Assembly: GCA_016874535.1 (NCBI GenBank)
Contig: VGUA01000001.1
Span: 41,188 to 105,187 of the forward strand
Length of the DNA: 64,000 bases
Direction: 5' to 3'
From: Gammaproteobacteria bacterium
Lineage (GTDB): Bacteria; Pseudomonadota; Gammaproteobacteria; Ga0077536
Shown: one piece after another, positions 42,335 through 63,144 of the stretch
Numbering within the stretch: the stretch's first letter is position 1
How the letters are laid out: each line of letters opens with the position of its first letter
Translations under genes and position numbers: made by a program
The notes under the pieces: generated by a model
Databases searched by the model: none
What the model saw: the letters and a program-made list of their open reading frames with translations, nothing else
What the model was told of the DNA's origin: nothing

Positions 42335-42772
42335 GTGGCGCAGCCGCGTTTGGTGTTGGACACGAATCTGGTGCTTTCGGCACTGGTGTGCAGTTCCGAG
42401 CGCGCGGCGCGCTGGCGGATGATGTGGCAACGCAGGCTCATCCTGCCCTTGGTATCGCAGGCCACTGCCGCGGAGCTCATGCGGGCTTTGGCGTATCCCA
42501 AGTTCAAGCTCGGCAGCGCGGAGCAGGAGGAATTGCTGGCCGACTATCTGCCCAGCTGTGAGGTGGTGTCTGTGCCGCAGCCGCCCCCGGTCACGCCACC
42601 CTGCAGAGATCCAGCCGATACCGCATTTCTGATCCTGGCGTTGGCCGGGAAGGCAGATGCAATCGTCACCGGTGACAAGGACTGGCTTGCCTTGGCTGGT
42701 ATTTTCGCATGCCCAATCTTGACCACCGAGGCGGGCCTGCAGGTCTCCGAAAAATGGGTGACAGTTACCTGA
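42335..42772 (+). CDS. PIN-domain protein (putative TA-system toxin, TIGR00305-like), orphan
   Basis: LVLDTNLVLSAL... and DPADTAFLILALAGKADAIVTGDKDW match the PIN acidic-residue pattern. GTG start. No antitoxin ORF is evident upstream. The stop codon lies inside repeat copy 1. Confidence 0.6.
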   Translation: MAQPRLVLDTNLVLSALVCSSERAARWRMMWQRRLILPLVSQATAAELMRALAYPKFKLGSAEQEELLADYLPSCEVVSVPQPPPVTPPCRDPADTAFLILALAGKADAIVTGDKDWLALAGIFACPILTTEAGLQVSEKWVTVT

Positions 42773-42818
42773 TTTCTGGAAATAGGGTAACTGTCACTAA
42801 TTTATGTCACCAATTTAT
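42754..42818. repeat. Palindromic repeat family, copy 1 (GGGTGACAGTTACCTGATTTCTGGAAATAGGGTAACTGTCACTAATTTATGTCACCAATTT)
   Basis: Imperfect palindrome of the GGTGACAGTTACCC...GGGTAACTGTCACC unit plus an extra GTCACCAATT half-site. It lies between the convergent PIN gene and amidase 3' ends. Confidence 0.85.
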
Positions 42819-44212
42819 CTGGGGTGCTGGCGGTGCCAGTGGGTCGCCCGCTGGAAGGCCCAGCCCGCGCGGACCAGCAGCGATTCTTCGAAGTTGGGCG
42901 CCACGAACTGAATGGCGACTGGAATGCCTTCCGGGTTCACGCCACCCGGCAGGGTGAGTGTGGGGCTGCCAGAGGAATCAAACGGGCAGGTGTAGCGCAG
43001 CGCGCCCGCAAGCAGGGCGGCATCTTCGCCCAAGGTCGCCATCATCGCGTGCGTGGGAGCCGCAAAAGGCATGGCCGGGATGAGTAACAGATCGACGTCC
43101 TGCCACAGCGCATTCACGCGCCCGGTGAAGTCCGCTCGCCGCAGCGCGAGACGCTGGTAGTCCATCGCACTCATCGACCGCCCGAGCTCGATGAGCCCAC
43201 TCAATCCCGGACCATATTCCGCCTTGCGCGCAGGAAAGGTGTCTGCATGCGCCACTGCGGTTTCCACTGCACACAACGGCACCCAATCCGCAACGGTCTG
43301 CGTGGTGTCCGGCATGGAGATGTCCTTCAGCTCCGCGCCCAATGACTGCACAACCTGCATCGCCTCCAGCAAGGCCTTGCGCGTGGGCTCATCCACAAAA
43401 TCCACGGTCCACGCACGAGCGACACCCACGCGCAAACCCTTGAGGCCCCGGGTCATCAGCGAGAGATAGTCTGGCACGGGGATTTGTGACGCGGTGGGAT
43501 CAAGCACATCAGCGCCAGCGATGGCGGCGAGCATCGCCCCGGCGTCCGCGGCGCTGCGCGTCATTGGGCCAATGTGATCGAGTGATGCGGCAAGTTCGAA
43601 CGCCCCATAGCGGCTCACGCGCCCCCAGGTAGGCTTGAGTCCGGTGATGCCGTTCGCTGCGGAAGGAAAGCGGATGGAGCCGCCCGTGTCCGTGCCGAGC
43701 GACCCAAAGCAGAGTCCGGCGGCCGTGGCCACGCCCGAACCACTGGAAGACGCACCGGACCACAGGCCCTGGCCCCACGGGTTGCGCGGCGCTTTCACCT
43801 GCGGGTGATGATCCGCAAAGGCGCCTTCCGTCTGCTGCAGCTTGCCGAGGATGACCGCGCCCGCCTCACGCAGGCGGCGCACGGTGGTCGCATCTTCCTT
43901 GGGCCGAAAATCCTTGTGGATAGGCATGCCGTGACCAGTTGGCACGCCGGCCGTCCACAGCAAATCCTTGACCGCCACCGGCACGCCATGCAGCGGGCCG
44001 CGCGCGTTGCCTGCCGCCATCTCCTGATCCGCGCGCCGCGCATCCGAAAGGGCTTGTTCTGCCATGAGGGTGACGAAGCTGCCGAGCGCCGGCTCTTTCT
44101 CTTCGATGCGTGCGAGCTGGGCCTTGGTAACTTCCTCCGAAGAGATCGCGCGGGTCTGGATCAATCGACCCACTTCCAGCAGTTCAAGGTAATGAAGATC
44201 TGAATCAGCCAT
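42815..44212 (-). CDS. amidase (amidase-signature family)
   Basis: 465 aa with the AS signature GGSSGGS-like region (GASSSGSGVATAAGLCFGSLGTDTGGSIRFPSA) and catalytic Lys (VKDL). Confidence 0.85.
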   Translation of the reverse strand: MADSDLHYLELLEVGRLIQTRAISSEEVTKAQLARIEEKEPALGSFVTLMAEQALSDARRADQEMAAGNARGPLHGVPVAVKDLLWTAGVPTGHGMPIHKDFRPKEDATTVRRLREAGAVILGKLQQTEGAFADHHPQVKAPRNPWGQGLWSGASSSGSGVATAAGLCFGSLGTDTGGSIRFPSAANGITGLKPTWGRVSRYGAFELAASLDHIGPMTRSAADAGAMLAAIAGADVLDPTASQIPVPDYLSLMTRGLKGLRVGVARAWTVDFVDEPTRKALLEAMQVVQSLGAELKDISMPDTTQTVADWVPLCAVETAVAHADTFPARKAEYGPGLSGLIELGRSMSAMDYQRLALRRADFTGRVNALWQDVDLLLIPAMPFAAPTHAMMATLGEDAALLAGALRYTCPFDSSGSPTLTLPGGVNPEGIPVAIQFVAPNFEESLLVRAGWAFQRATHWHRQHPR

Positions 44213-44482
44213 CTCGCCCTCCGGCAGGTTTTGGGTGTAGGTGGCGCCAAGCAGCGCCAGTGAAATACTCGCTGTTATTCGTATGGTGGCTGCAATATAC
44301 CTGCTGCGTCTGCCGTTCAGGTGTAAGTCACAATCGCGTAACGGATGTTTGAAGTGTGACCAAGGCTACGGGCTGCCGTCCATCGGCGCGAGGCCTGTTC
44401 GGCTCGCGCTGAACGACAAGCACAGGCGATGGGTTACGTTCCATCAGCGCCGGGAGCATCAAGTCCGCGTCTGACCAAAAGC

Positions 44483-44992
44483 TCATGCAAACGGACTGCT
44501 CTCGTCCTCCGCGCGCTCCGCCTTCCGCCAGGACAAACGCGGCCGCCACACGCCCACCACGATGTTTGCGACAGACAAGGCCACGATCATCCACACGCCT
44601 GCGCGCTCATGCCGCAGCAGCTCTGCAAGCGCAGCGGGATCTCCCTTACCCGACAAAGCCGTCGCCGCAAGCTCGGCGCCCCGTCGTGCGTTGGACTGCA
44701 CTGCGAGCAGCGTCCCCTCAAACATCGCAAGCCCCATCAGCGCCTTGAGCCACGGCCAGCCGAGGTTCATGAATGGACGATGCACGGCGATGGATAAGAG
44801 CCCACTCACCAATGCGAGCAGCAGCGAGGGCAAGATGAGCCATTCGGCGACGAGATGGATGCCCCGACGGATGGCGGCGAATTCGGCAGGCGATTCGCCG
44901 GGTGCCAGCATAGCGAGCACCAGATAGGTCGCCAGCCCTCCTAGCAGGCCGGCGCTCGCGACCAGATGCAGGAACTTGAGGGTTTTCTTCAT
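44483..44992 (-). CDS. small integral membrane protein (4 TM), unknown function
   Basis: 169 aa from MKKTLKF. Hydrophobic helices. It is downstream of, and likely co-transcribed with, the amidohydrolase gene. Confidence 0.5.
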   Translation of the reverse strand: MKKTLKFLHLVASAGLLGGLATYLVLAMLAPGESPAEFAAIRRGIHLVAEWLILPSLLLALVSGLLSIAVHRPFMNLGWPWLKALMGLAMFEGTLLAVQSNARRGAELAATALSGKGDPAALAELLRHERAGVWMIVALSVANIVVGVWRPRLSWRKAERAEDESSPFA

Positions 44993-45015
44993 GCAACGAG
45001 TGCTCCACTCCGCGC

Positions 45016-46698
45016 TCAAGCTGAGCCGTGCACAACCACTCCGTCAAGCATCGTCATCTCCACCTTGAGATCCTTGATGGCCTCCTCGGCACAGGTCATG
45101 GGGTCGCCCTCCAGCATCACCATGTCCGCGCGCTTGCCGGGTTCCAGCGAACCTATCTCATGCTCCATCCGCAGCGCCCATGCGCCATTCCAGGTGAAAC
45201 AGCGCAGTGCCTCTTCCCGGGTGATGCGCTGCTCCGGCCCAATCATCTCGCCCGTAAGTCCCGCCTGTCTTGCAAGGGATTGCCAGACGGTGAAGAGACC
45301 TTCGTGCGGTCCCCAGTCCGTGCTCTGCGAGACGGGCACGCCTCCATCCAGCCAGTCGCGCAGTGGAATGGCGACCTTGGCATACGCGTCGCCGAGGCGT
45401 CGTTTGTAGACCTCCTCGCCCTTGCCCCAGATGAAGTTGGTGCTGGTGGTAGGCGCCACACCCAGCCGGGCGCACAGCGCAATCTGCTCGCGGGTAGGGA
45501 ACTCGCAATGCTCCAGCACATAGCGCTTGTCGCGCACGGGCGTTTCCCGATTGATCTCTTCAAACGCCGCGAGTGCGATGCCGATGGAGCCGCGCCCCGC
45601 CGCCTCGGCGTGAATGCGGAAATTCAGCCTTGCAGCGAGACGAAGGATCTCCAGGTAGTGCTCGCGGGGAATGAGCGGTCCGGGATTCACGATATCGCCG
45701 AATGGGCCGGGATAAGGGGCGTCGTTGCAGGCCGCACCATGCCAGTAAGGCCCATCCAGACCCACCGAGCATCCAATCACCTTGAGCTGCGCATTGCCAA
45801 AGCCCCCGTTTGCGGCAAAGCGGATGGTCTTGAGATACGCCTCGATCTCACTCAGCGACTGCCGGCCATCAATCTCGAAAGTGTAGAACACGCGTACCGG
45901 CAGCCTGCCTTCGCCCAACAGCTCTGCATAGGCACGCAGCTCCTGCGGATCTGTGAGGTGCGCTTCCAGCAGGGTGGTGGTGCCGTGCGCCGCAAACTTG
46001 GGCGCGAGCAGGGCAATGCCTTCCCGCACATCCTCATAAGTAATCTGCGGAGCTGCGCGCTCCACGCATTGATAGAGCGGATCCAGGTTGTAGATGGGCT
46101 GCATTGCGCCCTGGACGATGCCAGTGGGACGGCCATTGGTATCGAGCTCCACCTGCGTATGTGGCGAGAGCGCACAACCAGCGCCTATGCCGGCCGCACG
46201 CATGGCGGCGCTGTTCAGCACGGCGAAATTCGGCACCCGGTTGGTGGGCGCCTGGATGTAGACGGGATGATCAGGTGCCAGCGCATCCAGTTCGGCGAGG
46301 TTTGGCACCGCCCCCGCAGCGCGCAGCGCCTCGGCATTGAGAAAGTAGGGCGGATCACCGATGGGCATGGCAACCACCCACGATCCTTTTGGCGTGGCGG
46401 CTATACGTTTCTGCAAACGGCCCAGTATCTCCGCGCGACTGGTGGCGCCTGTGAGCGAAACCTTGTGCTCATCCAGACCAAACAGCGCCACGTGGCCATG
46501 GGTATCGACAAAACCCGGGATGAGGGTACGCCCTGCGAGATCCACCTCGCGCGCGCCGGGGCCCTTGAAGCGCCGGATCTCCTGCGTGCTCCCCACGGCG
46601 AGAATCCGATCCCCCTGCACTGCCAGTGCCTCGGCGCGGCTGAACTGCCGGTCCACCGTCAGCACATTGCCGTTCACGAAAAGCGTTACCCCGGTCAT
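45016..46698 (-). CDS. amidohydrolase-3 family metal-dependent hydrolase (NfdA/YtcJ-like)
   Basis: 560 aa. The N-terminus VNGNVLTVD...ILAVG and the metal-binding PGFVDTHGH plus distal His/Asp motifs are typical of the Amidohydro_3 family. Confidence 0.8.
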   Translation of the reverse strand: MTGVTLFVNGNVLTVDRQFSRAEALAVQGDRILAVGSTQEIRRFKGPGAREVDLAGRTLIPGFVDTHGHVALFGLDEHKVSLTGATSRAEILGRLQKRIAATPKGSWVVAMPIGDPPYFLNAEALRAAGAVPNLAELDALAPDHPVYIQAPTNRVPNFAVLNSAAMRAAGIGAGCALSPHTQVELDTNGRPTGIVQGAMQPIYNLDPLYQCVERAAPQITYEDVREGIALLAPKFAAHGTTTLLEAHLTDPQELRAYAELLGEGRLPVRVFYTFEIDGRQSLSEIEAYLKTIRFAANGGFGNAQLKVIGCSVGLDGPYWHGAACNDAPYPGPFGDIVNPGPLIPREHYLEILRLAARLNFRIHAEAAGRGSIGIALAAFEEINRETPVRDKRYVLEHCEFPTREQIALCARLGVAPTTSTNFIWGKGEEVYKRRLGDAYAKVAIPLRDWLDGGVPVSQSTDWGPHEGLFTVWQSLARQAGLTGEMIGPEQRITREEALRCFTWNGAWALRMEHEIGSLEPGKRADMVMLEGDPMTCAEEAIKDLKVEMTMLDGVVVHGSA

Positions 46699-46829
46699 CG
46701 AGCCCCCTGTTCAAGAACGCCGACATTGGTGGCCAGAGCATACCCCCGGCCAGCAACCAACCGCCATTGCAAAAGACTTGAAGCGACGCAGCGTGGCCAT
46801 TAGTCTCCAAGGCTCTCCACCACGGTGCG

Positions 46830-48151
<1,322 letters not shown>

Positions 48152-48184
48152 GGGCTCGGTTGCCCGTGCACAGGAATCACTGAG

Positions 48185-49018
48185 ATGCCTCTGGTAGCCG
48201 CCATGCTTGTGCCGGGATCGCCGCTGCCCATGCTGCGACCGGACAATCCGCCTTGGCAGCCTTTGGTCCAAGGCTTTGCGCAGGCACGCGAAAGACTCGC
48301 GGCAAGCCAGCCCGAAGTGCTGCTGCTCTATTCCACGCAATGGATCGCGGTGCTCGATCAACTCTGGCAGACCCGCGCGCATCTCCAGGGGCTGCATGTG
48401 GACGAGAACTGGTATGAGTTTGGCGATCTGCCGTTTGATCTCCGGGTGGATACCGCGCTGGCGGAGGCCTGCGTGGAGGGCACTCGCGCGCTGGGCGTGA
48501 ACGCCAAGGGCGTGGACTACGACGGCTTTCCGCTCGATACCGGCACCATCGTGGCCTGTCGCATGCTCGATCCGGAAGGGCGACTCCCCATCGTGCTTGC
48601 GGCCAACAATCTCTATCACGACTGGGCCCAGACCAAGCGGTTGGGAGCGATGGCTGCAGAGCAGGCAGAACGGGCAGGCAAGCGCTATGCGGTGATCGGT
48701 ATCGGTGGCCTGTCCGGCACGGTATTCCGGCACGAGATAAGCATCGAGGATGACCACTTCGCAACGCCGGCGGACGATGCACTCAACCAGCAGTTGTTTG
48801 CGGCACTCGCGCGCGGCAATGAATCGGGTCTGGAGGCAGAGTGTGCTGCTTATGCCGGCGCGGCGCGGGCGGACATGGGCCTCAAGCATCTGGCCTTTGT
48901 GCTCGGTGCGATGGGCAATCGCGGATTTGGCACCGAAGTGCTGGGCTATGGACCGGTGTGGGGCAGTGGAGCCGCGGTGATCGACTTCACGGGGGCGGGC
49001 CTTGCTCAAGGAATATGA
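48185..49018 (+). CDS. LigB-like paralogue lacking metal ligands (non-catalytic alpha-type subunit)
   Basis: 277 aa. Clear paralogue of the upstream gene, but the His motifs are replaced (MLVPGSPLP, LLLYSTQW). This matches the AmnA/CnbCa-type alpha subunits. RBS AGGAA. Confidence 0.65.
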   Translation: MPLVAAMLVPGSPLPMLRPDNPPWQPLVQGFAQARERLAASQPEVLLLYSTQWIAVLDQLWQTRAHLQGLHVDENWYEFGDLPFDLRVDTALAEACVEGTRALGVNAKGVDYDGFPLDTGTIVACRMLDPEGRLPIVLAANNLYHDWAQTKRLGAMAAEQAERAGKRYAVIGIGGLSGTVFRHEISIEDDHFATPADDALNQQLFAALARGNESGLEAECAAYAGAARADMGLKHLAFVLGAMGNRGFGTEVLGYGPVWGSGAAVIDFTGAGLAQGI

Positions 49019-50405
49019 AGATCTCGATGCAATAGGACTGACCGAGTGGATACGCTCGGGTGAGGTGAGCGCGGCGGAAGTGCTGGAAGAAGCGATCCGG
49101 CGCGCGGAGGCGGCCAATGTCTCGCTCAATTTCATCGCCCACCGCGCCTATGACGAGGCGCGCAAGCGTGTAGGCGATGGCACTTTGCCACGCGGTCCGC
49201 TGCACGGCGTGCCGTGGTTGGTGAAGGAGCTCGCCACGCTCTGGCAAGGCCAACCTTTCACCAACGCCCTGCCGTGGATGCGCGGGGTGGTGGCGCCCTG
49301 CGATTCTGAAATCCTCTCCCGGCTCAAGCATGCAGGCATGGTGCCGTTCGCCAAATCCACCGCACCCGAAAACGGCTGGATGCTGGCAACAGAGTCATCT
49401 CTGCACGGCATCACCCGCAATCCTTTCAATCTGGACAGAACACCCGGCGGATCGAGCGGCGGCTCTGCCGCAGCGGTTGCGGCGCGCGTGGTGCCGATGG
49501 CGGAAGCCTCGGACGCCGGGGGATCGATTCGGGGGCCCGCTGCAAACTGCGGCCTGGTTGGCCTCAAACCCGCGCGCGGACGCGTGAGCTTGGCGCCCGC
49601 CCTGGGTGATTTCTGGCATGGCGGCGCAACGATTCTTGGCGTTACCCGCACCGTGCGCGACACCGCCCTACTGCTGGATGTGACACAAGGGCAGTTGCCC
49701 GGAGATCCTTACCAGTTGCCGCCTCCTGCGCGGCCCTATCTCGAAGAAGTCGGGATCCCGCCGGGCAAGCTGCGCATCGCCATCGTCACGAATACGCCCG
49801 CGGGTGGCACGCCACTCGATCCACAAATCGCTGCGGCCGTTGTGGCCACCGGTGCCTTGCTGGAAAGTCTGGGTCACCTGGTGGAGCCGCAGGTGGTGCC
49901 GTATGACTATCCGCGTCTGCTGGAGACCTATACCGCCATCGCCGCCACGGAGACAGCGGCTTTCTTCGAGGCCGTCATTCCCATGGTCGGAAGATCTGCG
50001 GAGCGCGCGGACATGGCGCCGATGTACTGGTCCATGTGTGAGAAGGGTCGGGCCACCACCGGCGTACAGCACGCGGCGAATATCGAAGCCATGCGGCAGA
50101 TCGCGCGCGACATCATGGGCCGCATGAACACCTACGATGCGTGGTTGATGCCTGTGCTACCGATGCTGCCGCGTGCGCACGGCTATTACGACATGTCCCG
50201 CGACGTGGACTATTACAACCGCGAGCTGCTGGGGCCGGACTGCTGCTACACGATGCCCTTCAACGTGAGCGGCGCACCGGCCATCGCCATGCCCGCCGGC
50301 TTCTCACGCGACGGGCTGCCGATAGGCGTTCAATTCGTGGGCCGGGATTGTGACGAAGCCACCCTCATCCGGCTGGCCGCGCAGCTCGAGCGCGCCCGGC
50401 AATAG
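49002..50405 (+). CDS. amidase (amidase-signature family)
   Basis: 467 aa with GGSSGGSAAAVAARVVPMAEASDAGGSIRGPA and the catalytic Lys in LVKEL. Overlaps the preceding gene by 17 nt (same operon). Confidence 0.85.
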   Translation: MLKEYEDLDAIGLTEWIRSGEVSAAEVLEEAIRRAEAANVSLNFIAHRAYDEARKRVGDGTLPRGPLHGVPWLVKELATLWQGQPFTNALPWMRGVVAPCDSEILSRLKHAGMVPFAKSTAPENGWMLATESSLHGITRNPFNLDRTPGGSSGGSAAAVAARVVPMAEASDAGGSIRGPAANCGLVGLKPARGRVSLAPALGDFWHGGATILGVTRTVRDTALLLDVTQGQLPGDPYQLPPPARPYLEEVGIPPGKLRIAIVTNTPAGGTPLDPQIAAAVVATGALLESLGHLVEPQVVPYDYPRLLETYTAIAATETAAFFEAVIPMVGRSAERADMAPMYWSMCEKGRATTGVQHAANIEAMRQIARDIMGRMNTYDAWLMPVLPMLPRAHGYYDMSRDVDYYNRELLGPDCCYTMPFNVSGAPAIAMPAGFSRDGLPIGVQFVGRDCDEATLIRLAAQLERARQ

Positions 50406-50410
50406 GAAAA

Positions 50411-50576
50411 TTGGTGGGAAATTGGTGACAGTTACCCCATTTCGGAATTCGTGACAGTTACCTCATTTCGGAATTCGTGACAGTTACCTCATTTCCGCAA
50501 ATAGGGTGACTGTCACGGTATGTACGTCACGGTACCGCCACTGGCTGGGGAAATAGGGTAACTGTCACCCATTTCC
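50411..50576. repeat. Palindromic repeat family, copy 2 (compound: three tandem 27-30-bp half-units GTGACAGTTACCYCATTTCGGAATTC plus inverted half-units)
   Basis: TTGGTGACAGTTACCCCATTTCGGAATTC, GTGACAGTTACCTCATTTCGGAATTC, GTGACAGTTACCTCATTTCCGCAAATAGGGTGACTGTCAC ... GGAAATAGGGTAACTGTCACCC. It is directly followed by the AAGGAG RBS of the hydantoinase-like gene. Confidence 0.85.
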
Positions 50577-50597
50577 CAAGCCTAAGGAGTCACGACC

Positions 50598-51988: not shown

Positions 51989-52112
51989 GACCGTCAAGAT
52001 CCGGGTCCATCGGCAAAGGCTCTTCTATGACCTCTGACAGCACGCGCAAGCTTTACCGCGAAGCCAGCATCGGGCACGTATTGGGATTTGTCAACGCCCG
52101 GCCCTGATCGTC

Positions 52113-52681
52113 GTGGACATGCAGTACGGATTCACGGACCCCGCACGTTCGTCACTGGCCGCGGATTGTTCGCGCGAGATACCGCAGATGAACGCGCTGG
52201 TGGATGCGATGCGCTCCCGTGGCGCCCCTATTTTCTGGTCCGTGATTGCCTATCGCGACAGCGAGGTGCGTGATGCGCGCCTGTGGTCACGCAAGGCCCC
52301 CCCTTGGGCGTGCTGGTCGAGAACACAGCGATGACGGAGATCGATGCCCGCATGCACTTTGCCCCTGAAGACTTCCTCATCGTGAAGAAGCATGCATCGG
52401 CCTTCTTTGGCACCCCCTTGGCTTCCATGCTCACGGCCAGCACAGTCGACACCACTGTGGTGGTTGGTTGCACGACCAGTGGCTGCGTACGGGCAACGGT
52501 CACGGATGCAATCGCGCATGGTTTTCGACCCATCGTCCCGCGGGAGGCGGTTGCAGACCGGGCGCCTGAACCGCATCTGGCGAGTCTTTTCGACATGGGC
52601 GCGAAATATGCCGATGTGATGACGGTGGAAGAGACCCTCCAGGCCATTTGCGCCTGCCCGCATACGCATCCCGGAAATTAG
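52113..52681 (+). pseudogene. isochorismatase-family hydrolase with a frameshift at a C7 homopolymer (~52297-52303) and no canonical upstream start
   Basis: The N-terminal part (ALIVVDMQYGFTDP...) is in frame 0 (52113..52334). The C-terminal part (FLIVKKHASAFFGTPL...VVVGCTTSGCVRATVTDA with catalytic Cys) is in frame 2 (52283..52681). One extra C in the GGCCCCCCCTT run would join them. The stop codon lies inside repeat copy 3. Confidence 0.6.
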
Positions 52682-52762
52682 TGACAGTTACCCTATTTCC
52701 TGAAATAGGGTAACTGTCACCAATTCCCAAAAAATGGGGTAACTGTCACCAATTTCTCATGG
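52672..52762. repeat. Palindromic repeat family, copy 3
   Basis: GGAAATTAGTGACAGTTACCCTATTTCCTGAAATAGGGTAACTGTCACCAATT plus an extra half-site GGGGTAACTGTCACCAATTT. It lies between convergent 3' ends (isochorismatase-like gene and cytochrome c). Confidence 0.85.
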
Positions 52763-53152: not shown

Positions 53153-54924
53153 ACCATGCCACCTTGGCTGGTGTACCGCGCGAGATCGGGCGCGAAATCG
53201 GTGGGCGGTCGCACATCAGCCGGATCTGCCGAATTCACGTCACCCGCCACCAGTGACCAGTCGCCGCCGATCCCGGAGTACACCGCGATGTACTGTCGTC
53301 CATCAGGTCCGCGATAACTGATGGGTGCACCGATCACCCCCGACCCCACCTTGAACTTCCACAGTGGCTTGCCGGTGTTGGCATCAATCGCCTTGAACCA
53401 GCCATCGAGCGTGCCGTAGAACGCCACGTCACCGGCCGTGACCAAGCTGCCGCTCCACACAGGGAAGCGCTCGTTTACTTCCCACTTCTTGCGGCCGGCC
53501 GCTGCATCCCAGGCCATGAACCCTCCCAGATGAGGGCCTGCACCCGGATGATAGGGAATGGTGGCGCCGACATACGGCGTGCCTTTGACGTAAATCGCGT
53601 CAGCCGATTGCCAGTCCATGCAGAGATTTAGCGTGGGTACATAGAAGAGCTTGGTGCGCGGAGACCAGGCAGCGGGCGCAGATGGCCCTTTGCCGCCTTC
53701 GAGCGTCGGGCAGATGTTCTTTACCAGACCGTGCGATTTGCCGGTCAATTTTTCCGGCACCACCAGCGGTCGGCCCGTGGTCTTGTCGACACCCGTCGCC
53801 CAGTTCACCGGCACATAAGGCTCGGCGACCAGCACCTCGCCAGTCGCGCGATCGAGTGCGTAGGCAAAGCCGTTCTTGTCGAAATGCACCAAGGCCTTAC
53901 GCACCCGGCCATCAATCTCCAGATCGACCAGGATGTTCTCCGCCGTCGCGTCGTAATCCCAGTTGTCGAAGGGCGTGAACTGATAAGCCCACACCAGCGA
54001 GCCGTCACCCGGCTTGCGGGCCATCACGCTCGCACTCCACTTGTTGTCGCCGAGACGCTGTTCCGCGTTGTAGGGGCCGGGGTTGCCGGTGCCGTAGTAC
54101 ACGAGATCAAGCGCCGGGTCATACGACAGCCAGCCCCATACCGGCGCACCACCGCGCTCCCAGCTTTCTTCGGCCCAAGTGTCCGTGCCGGCGTTCGGTG
54201 CTGGCGGGTAGGAAGGTTTGAAAGTTTCCTGCTTTACGCCCATTCCGGTATCAGGCCCCAGATTGCGCATCTGCCAGACAATCGCGCCAGTTTCCAGATC
54301 AAGCGCCTTCAATGAGCCGCGAATCCCGAACTCCCCGCCGGAGGGCCCCACCAGCACGCGGTTTCCCGCCACCAGCGGCGCCATGGTCAGGGTTTCGCCG
54401 CTGGCGAGATCCGCGACAGTGGTCTTCCAGAGTTCCTGCCCGGTTTTCGCGTCCACCGCCACCGTGCGGCCATCGAGCAGGTTGTAAACGATCTTGCCGT
54501 CGGCATGCACGGCCCCGCGATTCACGGCATCACAACAGGCGATACCAATCGCGGCGGGATTGGCATCCGGCCGGTACTTGAACCGCAGGGGATAGTCTTC
54601 CTGAGTCAGATCGAAGGCATACAGCACATTGGGCCACGGCGTGACGACATAGAGCGTGTCATCCACCACCAAAGGCTGGCCCTCATGTCCGCCCAGCACG
54701 CCGGTGGAGAAATTCCAAACCATGCGCAGCTTGCCGGCGTTCTCGGGCGTGATCTCGGCCAGCTCGCTGTAGCGCGTGCCGGCCATGTCCCCACCGGGCT
54801 GCGTCCACTCCTCACCCGCACCCGCCTGAACCTCGCCGGCGCCTAACAGCAGCCCCACCAGAAAAATGGGTGACAGTAACCCTATTTCCCGGAATCGGAT
54901 GGCTGTCGCGGTTTTTCCAGGCAT
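53134..54924 (-). CDS. PQQ-dependent alcohol/methanol dehydrogenase, type I, probable lanthanide-dependent (XoxF/ExaF/PedH-like)
   Basis: Eight-bladed propeller with the vicinal disulfide CC (IACCDAV) and a catalytic Asp in WDYDA, which has the extra Asp characteristic of Ln-dependent enzymes (Ca-type MxaF has WDYAG). Start taken at M16, giving the signal peptide MPGKTATAIRFREIGLLSPIFLVGLLLGAGEVQA, part of which is encoded by repeat copy 4. Confidence 0.8.
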   Translation of the reverse strand: MPGKTATAIRFREIGLLSPIFLVGLLLGAGEVQAGAGEEWTQPGGDMAGTRYSELAEITPENAGKLRMVWNFSTGVLGGHEGQPLVVDDTLYVVTPWPNVLYAFDLTQEDYPLRFKYRPDANPAAIGIACCDAVNRGAVHADGKIVYNLLDGRTVAVDAKTGQELWKTTVADLASGETLTMAPLVAGNRVLVGPSGGEFGIRGSLKALDLETGAIVWQMRNLGPDTGMGVKQETFKPSYPPAPNAGTDTWAEESWERGGAPVWGWLSYDPALDLVYYGTGNPGPYNAEQRLGDNKWSASVMARKPGDGSLVWAYQFTPFDNWDYDATAENILVDLEIDGRVRKALVHFDKNGFAYALDRATGEVLVAEPYVPVNWATGVDKTTGRPLVVPEKLTGKSHGLVKNICPTLEGGKGPSAPAAWSPRTKLFYVPTLNLCMDWQSADAIYVKGTPYVGATIPYHPGAGPHLGGFMAWDAAAGRKKWEVNERFPVWSGSLVTAGDVAFYGTLDGWFKAIDANTGKPLWKFKVGSGVIGAPISYRGPDGRQYIAVYSGIGGDWSLVAGDVNSADPADVRPPTDFAPDLARYTSQGGMVWVFAL

Positions 54925-55012
54925 GGGGTGGCTTTCGGAAATGGGGTAACTGTCACGAATTTCCGTCACGAATTTCCGGTGAGCGCGGAAATAGGGTAAC
55001 TGTCACCCATTT
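54862..55012. repeat. Palindromic repeat family, copy 4 (compound, about 150 bp)
   Basis: GGGTGACAGTAACCCTATTTCCCGG ... GGAAATGGGGTAACTGTCACGAATTTCCGTCACGAATTTCC ... GGAAATAGGGTAACTGTCACCC. It spans the PQQ-ADH start and 5' region, and lies downstream of the BVMO gene. Confidence 0.85.
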
Positions 55013-56838: not shown

Positions 56839-57106
56839 GGAACAAGCCCTGCGGAAAGGGTCGACGACCCGGACGGGCCATCATACCCCGAGGCCGGGGT
56901 CTCGATCGCCGCCGCCGCAGCCACCTGCGGCAGACTGGCCTTGCAGACCCGGTGCGGGATGCATAGTGAATGCGCTGCAGCATCTCTTTGCTGAGGTGTG
57001 CAACGCTTGACGAGTCCTTCGCAAACCGCGATACGAGCCGAGGAGACCACACAAGCACCGGCGCGGGGTCGCACTTCGCGCACATGAGCCTAAAAAGGAA
57101 GCCACC

Positions 57107-58153: not shown

Positions 58154-58267
58154 GCCGCGACACTCGTGAAAGTCGTCGGTGGGATGTGCAAGGCCGTAGC
58201 AGTGTTCGCGATTCAACAAGGCCATGGTGTCCTGGGCGCCGAGCCCCGAATCCCCGCAGCTCCGGGC

Positions 58268-58377
58268 AATTGGTGACGGAAATTGGTGACAGTTACCCTA
58301 TTTCCGGAAATGAGGTAACTGTCACCAATTTGGGGGTGCTACCTAATCTTCCGAAATGGGGTAACTGTCACGAATTA
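58268..58377. repeat. Palindromic repeat family, copy 5
   Basis: AATTGGTGACGGAAATTGGTGACAGTTACCCTATTTCCGGAAATGAGGTAACTGTCACCAATTT plus a downstream half-site GGGGTAACTGTCACGAATT. It lies between convergent 3' ends (LLM gene and FkbM-like gene). Confidence 0.85.
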
Positions 58378-58385
58378 TCATGCGG

Positions 58386-59264
58386 TCAGGCGTACCAGCA
58401 CTCGGAAAGCACGCGATTGGGATGCATCAGGCTATTGGGCTGGTCCAGTGGGTGGGGGAAAACCCGCGCCGGTCGGCTTTGCGTGATGCGATCCCGGCGC
58501 AGCAGCGTGAACTCCATCGCACGCGATACGGCGTAACCGGCCACGTGTGAGATGGGCGAATGATTGTTGGGATGAATGTGAACCACCGCGAAATCATCGA
58601 GCAGAGGCTCGATGCAGCGGGGGATGCGTCTGTTCACCACGCCGCCGTTCAAGTTGGTCAGCTGGTCGAGCTGATGCAGCTCCATGACGATGATGCGGAA
58701 GCGCTTGAACAAGGACGGGTCCGTCGCAGCCAGCACCGGGTACTCGGCACCCTCGATGTCCATCTGCAGCAGGAGATCGTTGTCCCCGGGTGCGGCATGC
58801 CGGTTCACCCAATCGGCGAGCGACACCACCCCGTCGCCAGTCTGCGCGCCCAGATTCAACTTCTCGAAGGTCATCAGCGAATGCGTGAAGGAGGGGCCCT
58901 CCACCGTGCCATCGGCGAGGTGACACGGGATCCCCCGTTCCAGCAGGGAGTTCTCGAACGCCGAAGTGGGACCCACGCCGGGAGAGAAACAGCGCTGGAT
59001 TCCTGCGAGGTCGTCCGGGACGAGATAGCCGCCGTCGCCGTCTCCCCCGAGGCGGATGAGCTTGTGCTCGGTTTCCACCGGCTTCAGGCGTTGGATGAAT
59101 GGCCCGAGCAACAGCGGTACCAGCAGGCGGCGCAGAATGCGCTCGCCCAGGGGCAGCTTCTCGCGGAACCGCTTGCGGTTGACCTTTCCGGTCTTGGGAT
59201 TGCCAGACATACCCGGATAGCGGCGATTCCAAGCATTCTCTTGAAGAGATTCCGGGCTCCTCAC
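58386..59264 (-). CDS. hypothetical protein with FkbM-methyltransferase-like core (tentative)
   Basis: Motif LLQMDIEGAEYPVL resembles the KIDVEGAE block of FkbM-family methyltransferases, with a Gly-rich region LGGDGDGGYL. The true start may be an internal Met (~59210). Assignment is weak. Confidence 0.4.
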   Translation of the reverse strand: MRSPESLQENAWNRRYPGMSGNPKTGKVNRKRFREKLPLGERILRRLLVPLLLGPFIQRLKPVETEHKLIRLGGDGDGGYLVPDDLAGIQRCFSPGVGPTSAFENSLLERGIPCHLADGTVEGPSFTHSLMTFEKLNLGAQTGDGVVSLADWVNRHAAPGDNDLLLQMDIEGAEYPVLAATDPSLFKRFRIIVMELHQLDQLTNLNGGVVNRRIPRCIEPLLDDFAVVHIHPNNHSPISHVAGYAVSRAMEFTLLRRDRITQSRPARVFPHPLDQPNSLMHPNRVLSECWYA

Positions 59265-59394
59265 CGGTAGGTCGCCCGCTGCGGGTGCGAAGGGGCGGAA
59301 GTGAGCAAACTGTCACACAAACTTCACTTGCAACGCGTGTTCACCCGTGGTCTCATCCCCAGCATTTGAAAGCGCGCCTTGGCGCCGGGAAACC

Positions 59395-60474
59395 ATGCCC
59401 AAATTGACCTTCACCGAAACCAGGCTGTCTCTGTCGCGGACCTACGCGCTCCCTGAGAGAGAAGACGCGCCAACGACAGCCCCGGTAGCGCTCACCCCGG
59501 TTGGCTACGAGCACCTGTCCCTGTTGCCCGAGGCTCTGGAACCGGCGATGGAGGTTCCCTCCTCAGAGGACCCTCCGCCAGCCGATAGCCGCCTGGCCAA
59601 TCCCAATCCCTACGGATTCACGCCATCGCTGCCGGAAATCTTCTACGCACAGGAACCCATCCTTGCGGAAGACGGCACAGTCATCGGTTACCTCGATACC
59701 TGCACTTGGCAACAGGACGGATACACCTCCACCTTCGTAGTCGAGTACGACGCTGACTTCAATGTGGTGAGCACGCTCTACTACGACAGCGCGGGATATT
59801 CGTCCTACAGCCTGTTCTACGCCGTCGTCGATGAGGAAGGCAACATCACGGGCTACGAAAACTTCTCTTCCTGGACAGATGGCACCGGAGCATGGGGCGA
59901 GTCGGTGAACGTGTACGACGCGTCTTGGCAGTTCCTCGGCAGTGAATATCGTGACTCCTGGGGCAATATCGTCAATACCGTCTACTTCTATGCGGAAGAC
60001 GGCAGCCGGGCAGGCCAAGAGGTCCGCGCGAGCTGGACGGACGCCGAGGGCGGCGTGACGGAAACCACCACTGTCTACGACGCCAACTGGCAGTGCATCT
60101 ATACCGAATCCCGGGACAGCTGGGGTACCACGGTCACCACGCAGTACATCTACGGCGAAACTGGAGAACTGGTGGCGCTGGAGATTACCGCCTCAGGCGT
60201 GGACGAGAACGGAGAAGCCTGGAGCAGCTACACCTGGCAGCCAATGGTTGAGGTGGATACGGGTGGAATCGACTGGGTCGATTTGCTGCCTGTCACGGAG
60301 GTGCCGCCGGAGGAGCCGCGGCCGGAGGAAATCCCGCAGATCATCATCTGTGAATTCCTGGTGCCTCATCCGGAGACTATCGACCTCGACCTTCAACCCC
60401 CGGAAGCCATCGAACCGATTCCGGTCGAGTGGCTGCGCCCTGCAGAGCTCGTCGGCGTACCCGGAAATTGGTGA
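59395..60474 (+). CDS. acidic Tyr/Trp/Thr-rich protein with internal ~43-aa tandem repeats, unknown function
   Basis: Repeats such as YDASWQFLGSEYRDSWGNIVNTVYFYAEDG and YDANWQCIYTESRDSWGTTVTTQYIYGETG. No signal peptide. A/T-ending codons (AAT, TAT, GAA) are more frequent than in neighbouring genes. The stop codon lies inside repeat copy 6. Confidence 0.5.
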   Translation: MPKLTFTETRLSLSRTYALPEREDAPTTAPVALTPVGYEHLSLLPEALEPAMEVPSSEDPPPADSRLANPNPYGFTPSLPEIFYAQEPILAEDGTVIGYLDTCTWQQDGYTSTFVVEYDADFNVVSTLYYDSAGYSSYSLFYAVVDEEGNITGYENFSSWTDGTGAWGESVNVYDASWQFLGSEYRDSWGNIVNTVYFYAEDGSRAGQEVRASWTDAEGGVTETTTVYDANWQCIYTESRDSWGTTVTTQYIYGETGELVALEITASGVDENGEAWSSYTWQPMVEVDTGGIDWVDLLPVTEVPPEEPRPEEIPQIIICEFLVPHPETIDLDLQPPEAIEPIPVEWLRPAELVGVPGNW

Positions 60475-60531
60475 AAGTTACCCTATTTCTTCGTTGATCG
60501 GCAGAAATTGGTGACAGTTACCCTATTTCTT
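60462..60531. repeat. Palindromic repeat family, copy 6 (two direct half-units)
   Basis: GGAAATTGGTGAAAGTTACCCTATTTCTTCG ... GAAATTGGTGACAGTTACCCTATTTCTTTG. Confidence 0.8.
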
Positions 60532-60728
60532 TGAGCAGAGCCCCGCTCAGTATCCCCAACCGGTCCCGGTCCCGGCCCCTTCGCCTCATTGCCACGTCCA
60601 GTGGCATGCAAGCCATCAACACTCACCGTCGAAAACAGCCTTTCGGTGCGCTGCAGTGCGAGGTGCGTCTGTAACGCTTTGATGTCAGGATTCCGGGACA
60701 AAGAGCGAACGGCGAGGATCAGAATCCC

Positions 60729-61538
60729 ATGGGACGCATGCCACCAGAAGTAATGATGAGCGAGCTCAGTCTGCTGTGGCAGAACGTGTTCAGCTGGGTA
60801 AGTTGGGGCTTGGTCTTGATCATGCTTCTGGTAGCGTTCGTTCTGGGCCGTCGCCACCGCACGCCTTTTTATGTATTCGCGATCATTGCTGCAGGCATGG
60901 GAGCCTGGGCTGAGCCCTTGTACGACGTTGCTTTCGATTTGTGGTTTCACGACGTGCATGACGGTCAACCCGGTGCGATGTTTTCGCATTTCACGGCATT
61001 TGGTGTGGTTCAACCGTACTGGTCCCACAGCGGTTACATCATCTTGTATGCCGCGGCATGCCTCTACGCGGGCAAGAGGATGTATGACGGCGGAATTTCG
61101 CCGACTCTGTTGGGGGTGATCTGGGTGGCCGAAATCTTCGCGTCCTGTCTCTTCGAAGTAATAGGCACGAGCACCGGGGTATATACCTACTACGGGCCCT
61201 ACGTGATGCGACTGTGGAATTACCCGTTTGTCATCGGGGTGCTGGAGGGCACACAGACCACGCTCTTCACGGTTCTGGCGGTGCTCTGGTGGCGCAAAGC
61301 CACACGGCCCATCGAGCTCGCGGGCCTCATCCTCTTGTTCCCTGTGACCATGCTGGGCGCGAATTTCGGGCTGGGCTGGCCGATCATCATCGCCCTGCAT
61401 CTCGCGGAGCCTACCTTCAGCCCAGCCTTGGTCTGGCTGGGCACGCTCTTGAGCATCGCACTATGTTCACTGGCGGTTCTCTGCATCAGCCGATTTCTAC
61501 CCCGCGCTGGTGACGCAGCACTCCCGGCGAGGGGATGA
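60729..61538 (+). CDS. polytopic membrane protein, unknown function
   Basis: 269 aa with about 7 hydrophobic helices rich in Trp and Tyr. No recognisable family. Confidence 0.5.
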   Translation: MGRMPPEVMMSELSLLWQNVFSWVSWGLVLIMLLVAFVLGRRHRTPFYVFAIIAAGMGAWAEPLYDVAFDLWFHDVHDGQPGAMFSHFTAFGVVQPYWSHSGYIILYAAACLYAGKRMYDGGISPTLLGVIWVAEIFASCLFEVIGTSTGVYTYYGPYVMRLWNYPFVIGVLEGTQTTLFTVLAVLWWRKATRPIELAGLILLFPVTMLGANFGLGWPIIIALHLAEPTFSPALVWLGTLLSIALCSLAVLCISRFLPRAGDAALPARG

Positions 61539-61692
61539 CCGTCCCCGTTTTTCAGGGATTCCCCAGAACTTTCCACCCCTGACAACACCCGAGGCTCACC
61601 TCCGGCCACGGTGATACGCTATCACCTCGCGGGACCCGGCCGACAAGGCCGGCCACTGAGTCTACGTCGGCGGCACGGGCCGCGTCGGAGGT

Positions 61693-62004
61693 GTGCTGGT
61701 CAATGTGATCGAGCAACATCTGGCCGAAGTCGCCGAGCTATGTAGACGCGCAGGTGCACGAAGGCTTGATGTGTTCGGCCCAGCTGCGCGGGGAGAATTC
61801 GACCCGTCGGCCAGTGATCTCGACTTCGTCGTCGAGTTCGATGAGCTTCCGCCAGCACGCTATGCCGACGCCTTCTTTGCTCTTAAAGAGGGCCTGGAGG
61901 CACTTTTCGGTCTACCGGTCGATCTCGTTACCGAGGCCAGCTTTGCCAACCCGCACTTCCGCGAACGGGTATATGCCGAGAAGCGCGCGGTCTATGCACG
62001 CTGA
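61693..62004 (+). CDS. nucleotidyltransferase-domain protein (MntA-type antitoxin of an MNT/HepT pair)
   Basis: 103 aa with the minimal nucleotidyltransferase motif GPAARGEFDPSASDLDFVVEF (GS...D.D). GTG start. Overlaps the downstream HEPN gene by 11 nt. Confidence 0.75.
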   Translation: MLVNVIEQHLAEVAELCRRAGARRLDVFGPAARGEFDPSASDLDFVVEFDELPPARYADAFFALKEGLEALFGLPVDLVTEASFANPHFRERVYAEKRAVYAR

Positions 62005-62608
62005 CAGCCGCAAACTGCTCTGGGATGCACTGAGAGCAGCCGAGCGCGTACGCCGTTTCACCCAAGGCAAAACCTTCGAGCACTATCAGACCGATGACTT
62101 GCTGAGCTCAGCCGTGGAACGGCAACTCGGGATTGTGGGTGAGGCTCTGAGCCAGCTCCGGCGCATTGACCCGGAGAGTGCCAACCGGATTGAAGGGCTG
62201 TCCCGCGCAGTCGGTTTTCGAAACGTTCTGGTCCATGGATATCAGGCTGTGGATAACCGCCTGGTATGGGGTGTCGTCGATGGCAGTCTGGGCGACCTGA
62301 TGACATCGCTAGCCGCGCTGCTGAAAGTTCCCCGAGGTTCAGGGCCGCACCGGCAGCACGAATCGCAAGGTATGTCGCCACGAGTCATCTCCCAGATGCT
62401 CGGTCAGTGCCGAGCCGGTCGCGCCGGAGAACCTGCCCGAGCCGCCGATGATGGGACGCACCAGGTCGAGGCCGCCGGCAATCGTGCCCTGCCGCCGAGG
62501 GTAGAAGCCGCTCCCGCTGACGAAGATCTGGTCAGGCGAGCCCGCCAGGGTGCCACTGCTGTCGCCAAACACGAAGTTGAGCGTCGTCATTCGCACTTCA
62601 TCCCCTGA
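61994..62608 (+). CDS. HepT-like HEPN-domain toxin (DUF86), 3' end uncertain
   Basis: HEPN Rx4HxY motif FRNVLVHGY about 80 aa from the ATG at 61994. The frame has no stop until 62608. This gives a ~90-aa C-terminal extension that overlaps the convergent gene 62339..62914. Confidence 0.65.
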   Translation: MHADSRKLLWDALRAAERVRRFTQGKTFEHYQTDDLLSSAVERQLGIVGEALSQLRRIDPESANRIEGLSRAVGFRNVLVHGYQAVDNRLVWGVVDGSLGDLMTSLAALLKVPRGSGPHRQHESQGMSPRVISQMLGQCRAGRAGEPARAADDGTHQVEAAGNRALPPRVEAAPADEDLVRRARQGATAVAKHEVERRHSHFIP

Positions 62609-62914
62609 AGCGGGATAGTCGACGCTGGTGGTGAGCAATTGCGCATCCAGTCGGCCTACCTCACGCGCCCGCCGATCAAAGATGGGTGTTGCCGTGAGCA
62701 CGCGCTGGTCGCCCAACTGATGCCCATCAGACCCTGGTGTGGTCAGCTGCGTTGCCACGGGACCATGGGTCACAACCAAAACCTTGGTCGCGCCATTCGC
62801 TTCCCGCCCGGTCGGCTTGTCGCCGGCAGCCAGCACCGTAATGGCGGCGAGCAATCCGGAAACCAGCGTCAGCCAGTAAACGACATGTCTCGTCCCAATG
62901 CTTGTCTGGGGCAT
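62339..62914 (-). CDS. secreted or membrane-anchored hypothetical protein
   Basis: 191 aa with an N-terminal signal/anchor (VVYWLTLVSGLLAAITVLAAG) and a Gly/Thr-rich beta-type body. No family recognised. Confidence 0.5.
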   Translation of the reverse strand: MPQTSIGTRHVVYWLTLVSGLLAAITVLAAGDKPTGREANGATKVLVVTHGPVATQLTTPGSDGHQLGDQRVLTATPIFDRRAREVGRLDAQLLTTSVDYPASGDEVRMTTLNFVFGDSSGTLAGSPDQIFVSGSGFYPRRQGTIAGGLDLVRPIIGGSGRFSGATGSALTEHLGDDSWRHTLRFVLPVRP

Positions 62915-63037
62915 GCCGGCATCTCCACAATCTTGCAGACTGCGACCATAGCCGAGGCCTCATGGGCTCTCCAGATCCACGGCCGACCAATCTCGGAAAA
63001 TGCCAACTGGCGCACGCCCCTGAAATGGGCGACGGGA

Positions 63038-63131
63038 AAGTGGTGGGGAAATTGGTGACAGTTACCCTATTTCCGGAAATAGGGTAACTGTCACCAATTA
63101 CGGACGTCACCAATTACGGACTGTCACCGAT
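63038..63131. repeat. Palindromic repeat family, copy 7 (contains the perfect 50-bp palindrome AATTGGTGACAGTTACCCTATTTCC/GGAAATAGGGTAACTGTCACCAATT at ~63051-63100)
   Basis: The two 25-nt halves are exact reverse complements. It is followed by two extra half-sites (GTCACCAATTACGGAC x2). Confidence 0.9.
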
Positions 63132-63144
63132 ATCGCCGATGGGA

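Follow-up and report, generated by a model that had tools for sequence, protein, structure and literature searches.

The question raised by this locus is what kind of element the palindromic repeats are that occupy seven loci in the right-hand part of a 64,000-nucleotide stretch of gammaproteobacterial DNA (GCA_016874535.1, contig VGUA01000001.1, positions 41,188 to 105,187; the whole stretch is referred to here as the window). A first-pass annotation had described the repeats as a novel family confined to a mosaic island, with possible roles as recombination joints and bidirectional terminators. The explanation best supported by our analysis, to which we assign a probability of roughly 85%, is that they constitute a family of non-autonomous elements associated with a Y1 transposase and resembling REPINs, the inverted doublets formed by repetitive extragenic palindromic (REP) sequences. 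Confidence in any specific cellular function of the repeats is much lower. The family appears to be undescribed and unusually widespread; the type of element is already known. What the analysis shows directly is how the units are built and oriented, that doublets can form hairpins, that units enclose a TnpA-REP-like gene in several phyla, that the family is dispersed, and that one unit differs in presence between lineages.

Anatomy of the repeat unit

A search of the whole window with GGTGACAGTTACCC, allowing up to two mismatches, returned 20 matches against the 0.21 expected by chance from shuffled sequence, all of them within 42,757-63,095; the palindromic repeat family is thus real, as the first-pass annotation had proposed. 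The 20 matches are half-units of ~26 bp that share the core GTGACAGTTACC and make up seven loci spanning 42,752-63,133. The unit reads (G)AAATTG-GTGACAGTTACC-CTATTTC(C) and is quasi-symmetric, with GGTGAC-A-GTTACC lying within the flanks GAAAT...ATTTC.

Unit orientation was examined in a pool comprising the window, 77 loci from GTDB genomes (one genome per species) and 17 metagenome loci. Neighboring units less than 200 bp apart are arranged '+-' in 86 cases, '++' in 24 and '--' in 20, and '-+' does not occur, so that the side starting with AAATTGGTGAC is always the outer end. The resulting doublets fold as single-stranded DNA (ssDNA) well beyond shuffled controls (z -5.8 to -11.7), and the spacer between their arms is not conserved, even among the copies of one metagenome-assembled genome (MAG). 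Inverted doublets, ssDNA hairpins and free spacers give the repeats a REPIN-like anatomy; published REPs are extragenic, occur mostly as inverted hairpin doublets with a variable spacer, and flank a Y1 transposase (Nunvar 2010, PMC2817692; Bertels & Rainey 2011, PMC3116915). The units of the window are likewise extragenic, lying in spacers or overlapping just the last codons of two open reading frames (ORFs).

Just outside 22 of the 265 distinct units, four of them in the window, lies a tandem partial copy of the outer end. Such copies consist of 3-7 nt of flank followed by ATTGGTGAC, recur with a period of 13-16 nt, and have their junction always right after GTGAC; they may be the footprint of a cut-and-join point. 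The 18 further cases are in other loci, including L045, L043, L042 and L108 (L numbers are our labels for retrieved loci and contigs, and P numbers those for transposase homologues).

A partner transposase in related genomes

ORFs from the 77 repeat-selected GTDB loci were clustered without prior assumption, using every one that reached 70 aa. The most recurrent protein, present in five genomes, is a ~220-aa ORF situated between a + unit and a - unit. It matches Pfam Y1_Tnp (E 1e-10 to 1e-14) and scores 70-80 bits on the NCBIfam model REP_Tyr_transpos (REP-associated tyrosine transposase, RAYT; cutoff 80), and just 16-21 bits on the IS200 model, far under the cutoff. The sole PDB sequence match is 4ER8, the E. 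coli TnpA-REP, with the HUH motif and the catalytic Tyr aligned, and the AlphaFold2 model of the protein (pLDDT 87.8) again retrieved 4ER8 as the top Foldseek match (E 1.7e-8, TM 0.70), followed by the TnpA proteins of ISDra2 and IS608.

In L007, L012, L042, L084-L086 and L117 a + unit and a - unit enclose the transposase gene, and loci picked by the protein alone (P0002, P0003, P0004, P0005, P0006) all carry units within about 100 bp of the gene ends. Bracketing was thereby found at no fewer than 10 independent loci from several phyla, five in GTDB genomes and five in protein-selected metagenome or MAG loci. In genomes of different phyla, the TAA stop of the transposase ORF (..EIG* or ..ENR*) is also the TAA of GGTAAC in the downstream unit; ORFs with their stop inside this motif are L012 4721-5407, L007 1059-1877, L042 5517-6206 and L048 3161-3850.

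The transposase family comprises at least 7,988 proteins at E<=1e-20. An alignment of 20 homologues, 218-240 aa in length, revealed invariant N59-H60-V61-H62, W99-Q100, Y119-x-E121-x-N123-P124 and W138-S139-S140, with the Tyr motif reading Y[VI]E[RL]NP. These motifs (NHVH, WQ, YxExNP, WSS) and the protein length fit TnpA-Y1 subclass 2.1 in Table 1 of PMC6006769, for which Quentin (2018) gives NHVH, W[EQ], YIELNP, an SS tail motif and a median of 238 aa. Most of the proteins named 'TIRYT' fall in this subclass (Quentin 2018, PMC6006769), which corresponds to Group 1 of Bertels (PMC5581495) and is the second-largest TnpA-Y1 group. The name was introduced, together with 'TIRtron', for RAYT-like genes with long inverted repeats sharing GGGGWSAS (Di Nocera 2013, PMC3733652). 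The partner transposase belongs to the RAYT/TnpA-REP lineage and, within it, fits subclass 2.1 (Group 1 in the scheme of Bertels and the 'TIRYT' type described by Di Nocera), a placement by motifs and length rather than by a tree. The last ~82 aa of the protein have no Pfam match even at E<=10, and residues 156-204 are modeled as four or five short helices (pLDDT 71-86); TIRYTs carry a C-terminal helix-turn-helix-like domain (Bac_DnaA_C, HTH_23 or HTH_28).

The DNA partner points the same way. The unit start GGTGACAG agrees with GGGGWSAS at 7 of 8 positions, and the exact form GGGGACAG occurs in L120, L062 and L024. L120, which encodes the 61%-identical homologue P0016 in one conserved context across several samples, carries GGGGACAGTATAC, fitting the published TIRYT motif (PMC3733652). 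Remoter family members retain the sub-core alone, as GGTGACAGTATAC in Thiohalocapsa marina and GGGGACAGTATAC beside P0016. Because of the protein motifs and length and the likeness of the unit to GGGGWSAS, the repeats are filed here as a TIRYT-type REPIN-like family.

The Ca. Multivoradales chromosome OZ245024 contains two ~98% identical transposase copies with units (L020 6864-7604 and L051 1728-2461), one of which is frameshifted, and L020 6688-6876 holds a duplicated C-terminal fragment of the transposase.

Distribution of the repeat family

Scanning 185,579 species-representative GTDB genomes with GTGACAGTTACCYNATTTC yielded the 77 stretches. About 35 isolated chance matches are expected from base counts, and some 15-20 unflanked singletons were not counted as members; the other stretches hold paired units, with several copies per MAG. 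Five MAG labels carry the family, namely Gammaproteobacteria/Pseudomonadota, Acidobacteriota (Thermoanaerobaculia, including Ca. Multivoradales), Desulfuromonadales, Bdellovibrionales and Polyangiaceae, and the 12-nt core GTGACAGTTACC is invariant across MAGs labeled to five phyla. The hosts are uncultured freshwater and sediment lineages. Within single MAGs the units are dispersed, being found on 12-13 contigs each in JAURMM and in JBDLQR; the latter is the closest GTDB relative, with 86% aa identity at the amidase C-terminus and a repeat at the same place. JAURMM contains a 50-bp palindrome identical to that of the window (L045).

The exact window-type 22-mer was found on 17 metagenome stretches, 10 of which come from the window's own Ga01941xx sample series and 2 of which overlap the window. 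Counting only contigs of the series without overlap with the window, at least nine carry it. Plasmids and viral contigs pointed to no vector for horizontal spread: plasmids yielded only homologues at 36% identity or less, and viral contigs two single matches, which is chance level. A full-text literature search for the core sequence returned just unrelated primers and constructs.

Three side observations concern the variety of these repeats. L015 3552-3682 and L037 40-170 are identical, yet their MAG labels are Desulfuromonadales and Desulfobacula; a single organism that was binned or named in two ways is the probable cause, and MAG labels should therefore be used with caution for counting taxa. 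A second related repeat, GGTACCTGTCCCC / GGTGCCTGTCCCC and often ttaaggtacctgtcccctta, is interleaved with the first in L067 (1134-2849), L038, L047 and L025 (Chromatiales MAG CAKZML; JBFFTZ) and may represent a second repeat-transposase pair in the same genome. The arms of L117 (GCA_030429865.1) differ systematically, the left reading ..CAGTGACAGTTACCGTATT.. and the right ..CGGTGACAGTAACTGTATTTCC.., which recalls the Y and Z REP subtypes of E. coli.

The seven loci of the window

Locus reading and a hidden Markov model (HMM) scan gave the following loci and unit orientations; z scores refer to ssDNA folds.

Locus 1, 42752..42816 (units 42,752-42,803), + -: REPIN-like doublet with cores 42758-42769 (+) and 42786-42797 (-); partial outer-end copy GTCACCAATTTAT at 42805-42816; between convergent PIN (+) and amidase (-) genes; fold -14.9 kcal/mol, z -7.8.
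Locus 2, 50417..50576, + + + - -: compound cluster of five units, cores 50425+, 50451+, 50477+, 50505- and 50557-; partial outer-end copy GTCACGGTAC at ~50526 (50526-50535); between co-directional amidase and amidohydrolase genes; z -5.8.
Locus 3, 52673..52756, + - -: three units, cores 52681+, 52709- and 52738-, the first two forming a tight doublet; between convergent isochorismatase-like (+) and cytochrome c (-) genes; z -7.2.
Locus 4, 54864..55012, + - - plus a decayed unit: wide doublet with outer units 54870+ and 54995-; interior holding the decayed unit (~54893-54915), a further - unit (54945) and partial copy GTCACGAATTTCC (54964-54977); flanked by a Baeyer-Villiger monooxygenase gene (3' end) and a pyrroloquinoline quinone (PQQ)-dehydrogenase gene (5' end), both on the - strand; z -6.4.
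Locus 5, 58265..58378 (units 58,278-58,378), + - -: tight doublet 58286+ and 58314-, third unit 58360-; partial outer-end copy AATTGGTGAC at 58267-58277, left of the doublet; between convergent luciferase-like monooxygenase (+) and FkbM-like (-) genes; z -7.6.
Locus 6, 60463..60531, + +: direct pair, 60471+ (core mutated to GTGAAAGTTACC) and 60511+; no hairpin or palindrome; fold not significant, z -2.3.
Locus 7, 63047..63133 (units 63,047-63,101), + -: doublet 63055+ and 63083- containing the exact 50-bp palindrome; two partial outer-end copies, GTCACCAATTACGGAC and TGTCACCGAT, at 63100-63133, after the doublet; fold of the 50-mer -24.6 kcal/mol, z -11.7.

An inverted-repeat scan located the exact 50-bp palindrome at 63,050-63,099, one base away from where the first-pass annotation had put it, and a near-perfect copy (92% complementarity) at 58,280-58,331. 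That annotation had also read the 50.4-kb locus as three tandem half-units, where there are five units, and had listed the 60.5-kb locus among full, half or compound copies of the palindrome, where the units form a direct pair. Its gene names were confirmed by Pfam. Its statement that every copy is intergenic holds for most of them: the TGA stop (42770-42772) of the PIN ORF (42335-42772) falls inside the + unit of locus 1, in ACCTGATTTC, and the final five codons and the stop of ORF 59,347-60,474 (..VPGNW*) are supplied by the first unit of locus 6. Repeats in the window lie at gene 3' ends or between genes, and no intact one lies in a divergent promoter spacer. The spacer that separates the divergent FkbM-like gene and ORF 59347-60474 holds a possibly decayed unit, GAAGTTTGTGTGACAGTTTGCTCACTTCCG (12 bits), at 59296-59320.

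The absence of copies from the first 42.7 kb was borne out by the HMM scan, which found no credible unit in 1-42,700, the best matches there (7-10 bits) being chance near-matches. To the right, the sequence is continued for 7.1 kb by metagenome contig L105, which is 99.6% identical where it overlaps the window, and this extension has no further unit; the apparent extra unit at L105 8706, 7.8 kb right of the cluster, lies within a coding region and matches by chance with one mismatch. At gathering thresholds, Rfam returned no family anywhere in the window.

Gene neighborhood and synteny

Seven loci in 20.4 kb of 71.1 kb represent significant local clustering (p=0.003). The left 42.7 kb carry housekeeping-type genes (AsmA, ArgH, DksA, GlpK, AcrB, pyruvate kinase) and about eight convergent junctions without a repeat, and the repeat-bearing right part carries accessory-type genes at a GC content of 0.61 versus 0.64 on the left. 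All clear convergent junctions in 42.7-63.2 kb bear a repeat. By tetranucleotide signature the left and right halves cannot be told apart, and each is as similar to the related MAG as the other; at 10-14 kb, the noise in this comparison is too high for it to reveal foreign origin. Comparably dense neighborhoods exist in relatives, with eight loci in 18 kb around the transposase gene of L117 (4124-18026) and five in 8 kb in L042.

L099, a contig from a different study, has 91% nt identity over window positions 42,822-49,727 and has the amidase-LigB module in common. Left of the repeat it carries GDP-fucose genes, a ParE/RelE pair and a small repeat-bracketed gene instead; the synteny break lies inside the locus 1 doublet, of which only the '-' unit is retained. 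Homology with L011 likewise stops at the leftmost repeat. These breaks would fit repeat-associated rearrangement, with limited support, as one boundary of seven is comparable. Gene order across the 52.7-kb repeat is unchanged in other samples (L109, L110), and a look-up with the amidohydrolase gave the same order alone. The orthologue of ORF 59,347-60,474 in L055 (5881-6150) ends ..ILPPEI* and has no unit downstream; L055 therefore lacks the unit present at 60,463, and units come and go between lineages.

Short-read assemblies of several samples end at the five-unit cluster at 50.4 kb: L079 and L080 stop ~63 bp past the amidase gene, and L109 and L110 begin 225 bp before the amidohydrolase gene. 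Small addiction-type genes seem to adjoin these repeats, as exemplified by PIN and HepT in the window and by L099 3123-3640, where a 139-aa ORF (3181-3600, -) lies between a doublet (3123-3174) and a single unit (3614), and by the ParE/RelE-like pair at 1303-1898 of the same contig. A terminator scan called 16 terminator-like sites in 44-64 kb, all at positions other than the repeat loci, and the hairpins lack a downstream T-run; a promoter scan likewise gave no coincidence with repeats.

Alternative explanations

According to the first-pass annotation, the repeats are recombination joints of a mosaic island of six modules and now act as bidirectional transcription terminators. We consider this unlikely, although parts of it have evidence in their favor. 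The synteny breaks in L099 and L011, the single '-' unit left in L099, and the repeat at every clear convergent junction agree with joints, the doublets are strong hairpins as terminators would be, and the drop in GC content accompanies the change from housekeeping-type to accessory-type genes. The comparison with relatives covers only the leftmost of the seven joints, and module order across the 52.7-kb repeat is unchanged; moreover, intergenic spacers tolerate both breakpoints and REPs, so that coincidence of the two is expected without causation. The mosaic island finds no support in tetranucleotide composition, leaving GC content as the sole difference, and no mobility genes are present. 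Nor are the repeats confined to it as claimed, given the nine or more non-overlapping contigs with the 22-mer and the many MAG contigs with the family, although the local clustering is genuine. The terminator role is not supported, since no repeat has a T-run or a terminator-like call. What does stand from that annotation is its suggestion of a REP-like non-autonomous element, borne out by the anatomy and by transposase bracketing in relatives; the search for a RAYT being positive in relatives, the repeats are not novel as a kind. Distinctly improbable is a related possibility, that the 20-kb stretch came from a REPIN-rich donor and that its repeats are inert hitch-hikers in a host without a cognate transposase. 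The sharp edges of the cluster on both sides, its lower GC content, the palindrome shared with JAURMM and the want of a RAYT with a window-type unit from the lake series would all be accommodated. The units, however, are very well preserved and include a 50-mer without a single mismatch, a state that speaks for recent copying or for selection; the other contigs of the sample series that carry the exact 22-mer are similar in composition, the tetranucleotide signature is not foreign, and relatives show dense REPIN neighborhoods both near and away from the transposase gene.

Two further explanations are each very improbable. Arrays of operator or binding sites for an unlinked regulator or nucleoid protein that binds double-stranded DNA could account for the ~12-bp quasi-symmetric quarter sites GAAATTGGTGAC / GAAATAGGGTAAC of which the unit is made and for the extra quarter sites beside full units at 13-16 bp spacing. 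This reading, also raised by the first-pass annotation, is unlikely because copies sit downstream of genes or between convergent genes; none of the three divergent spacers holds an intact unit, one possibly holding a decayed one. In addition, the neighboring genes are functionally unrelated, copy number and position vary between relatives, and these very units are found on both sides of a transposase gene in several phyla. As for a classical miniature inverted-repeat transposable element (MITE) derived from an insertion sequence (IS) with a DDE transposase, ~26-bp terminal inverted repeats around a short interior would be as expected, but the three tight doublets have no flanking direct repeats, the interior differs between copies, and the only gene ever found between the inverted repeats is the Y1 transposase. 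Integron attC sites would likewise part gene groups, one of them with a toxin-antitoxin pair; here the order GTTACCC...GGGTAAC is the reverse of R''(RYYYAAC)...R'(GTTRRRY), the sequence itself does not match either, and the mixed gene orientations, the multi-gene modules and the lack of an integrase domain among the scanned ORFs fit no better.

Proposed mechanism and points that weigh against it

In the REPIN-like explanation, the replicating entity is most likely the head-to-head doublet with its short variable spacer, which forms a long hairpin on a single strand. A transposase encoded elsewhere in the genome would mobilize such doublets in trans, recognizing the invariant 12-nt core on ssDNA, cutting and rejoining it, and the doublets would spread into permissive spacers downstream of genes. 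The candidate cut probably lies between GTGAC and AGTTACC, because the tandem partial copies always end there. As secondary consequences, copies would provide homologous or transposase-made breakpoints, which may be why synteny ends at them, and would place stable hairpins on transcript 3' ends. The seven-locus cluster is best read as a REPIN-dense neighborhood in an accessory, loosely packed stretch, as near L117 and L042, and not as island-defining.

Several results weigh against this explanation. Neither the window nor the 7 kb to its right contains a transposase gene (best tblastn hit within the window E 0.25), as the first-pass annotation had noted for the window, and the cognate gene of the window's genome was not found among the loci of the five homologues looked up (P0002, P0003, P0004, P0006, P0016). 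From the same lake series a single RAYT was recovered, P0006 (L086-L089), with the variant unit GTGACAGTTACTGTATATCG at its flanks, and the partner protein is not encoded by any of the 17 metagenome loci in which the window-type 22-mer occurs. The canonical GT[AG]G REP head is absent, the consensus GAAATTGGTGACAGTTACCCTATTTC having no GTAG or GTGG foot, and a lone unit folds poorly (-4.1 kcal/mol, z -1.85, not significant). Pseudomonas REPINs are reported to be scattered more or less at random over extragenic space (PMC3116915), which would not predict such strong clustering in one region. Quentin (2018, PMC6006769) records 'REP: no' beside subclass 2.1 genes, and in Ca. Multivoradales the element looks IS-like rather than like a single domesticated gene.

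Implications

An apparently orphan palindrome family becomes an identifiable repeat-transposase pair, and the little-studied TIRYT/Group 1 Y1 transposases gain an abundant DNA partner, in which a 12-nt core is invariant and a candidate cleavage point can be named. This makes in vitro assays of binding and cleavage on a defined 50-mer straightforward. For genome analysis, the repeats explain assembly fragmentation in these lineages and can rewrite the last codons of genes; further evidence is needed before they are taken for island boundaries or terminators. Specialist interest lies in a Group 1/subclass 2.1 transposase with dense repeats, a cross-phyla core, and partial copies that hint at the cleavage site.

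A more general proposition is possible and is offered tentatively: subclass 2.1/Group 1 transposases may maintain dense REPIN-like populations in many uncultured lineages, with the core GTGACAGTTACC invariant across five phyla, a cut at GTGAC^AGTTACC, and dense neighborhoods that are preferred break-and-join points for accessory modules.

Comparison with known systems

The closest known systems are the TIRtrons, whose TIRYT genes are mentioned in the literature only in PMC3733652 and PMC6006769. They share with the window family a RAYT-like Y1 transposase (~220-240 aa; motifs NHVH, W[EQ] and YxExNP, SS-containing tail), long inverted repeats in place of GTAG hairpins on either side of its gene, and repeats with a GGGGWSAS-type start (GGTGACAG at 7/8 positions, exact GGGGACAG elsewhere) that also occur without a gene as dimers or clusters and have a wide, patchy taxonomic spread. 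Some of the published terminal inverted repeats form moderately abundant families, as dimers or clusters, in cultured species (Di Nocera 2013, PMC3733652). The window family, in contrast, is dense, with locally one locus per ~3 kb, has a 12-nt core invariant over five labeled phyla, and resides in uncultured freshwater and sediment hosts.

REPIN-RAYT systems of Pseudomonas and Enterobacteria (PMC3116915, PMC2817692) resemble the family in their extragenic inverted hairpin doublets with a spacer less conserved than the arms, in the presence of singlets and higher-order clusters, in repeats that flank a Y1 transposase, and in the non-autonomous nature of the elements. The window family differs in lacking a GT[AG]G head, in the poor hairpin of a single unit, in arms that are A+T-rich in a 64% G+C genome, in the regional clustering of its copies, and in a partner transposase of another RAYT group with an extra ~80-aa tail. 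Its units also never adopt the '-+' tail-to-tail arrangement of alternating bacterial interspersed mosaic elements (BIMEs). E. coli TnpA-REP with its REP/BIME sequences (4ER8; PMC3479197, PMC8266576) is the best match in both sequence and structure, with HUH and catalytic Tyr conserved, and its gene lies among its own repeats (a REPtron), as at the transposase loci of the relatives; identity is nevertheless ~19%, and E. coli REPs are G+C-rich, GTAG-tagged hairpins. The IS200/IS605 family has in common with the window family the catalytic fold, the absence of target-site duplication, and ends read as DNA structure plus a short sequence, but the score on the IS200 model is far under the cutoff, the ends in the window are true inverted repeats, and most copies are gene-less.

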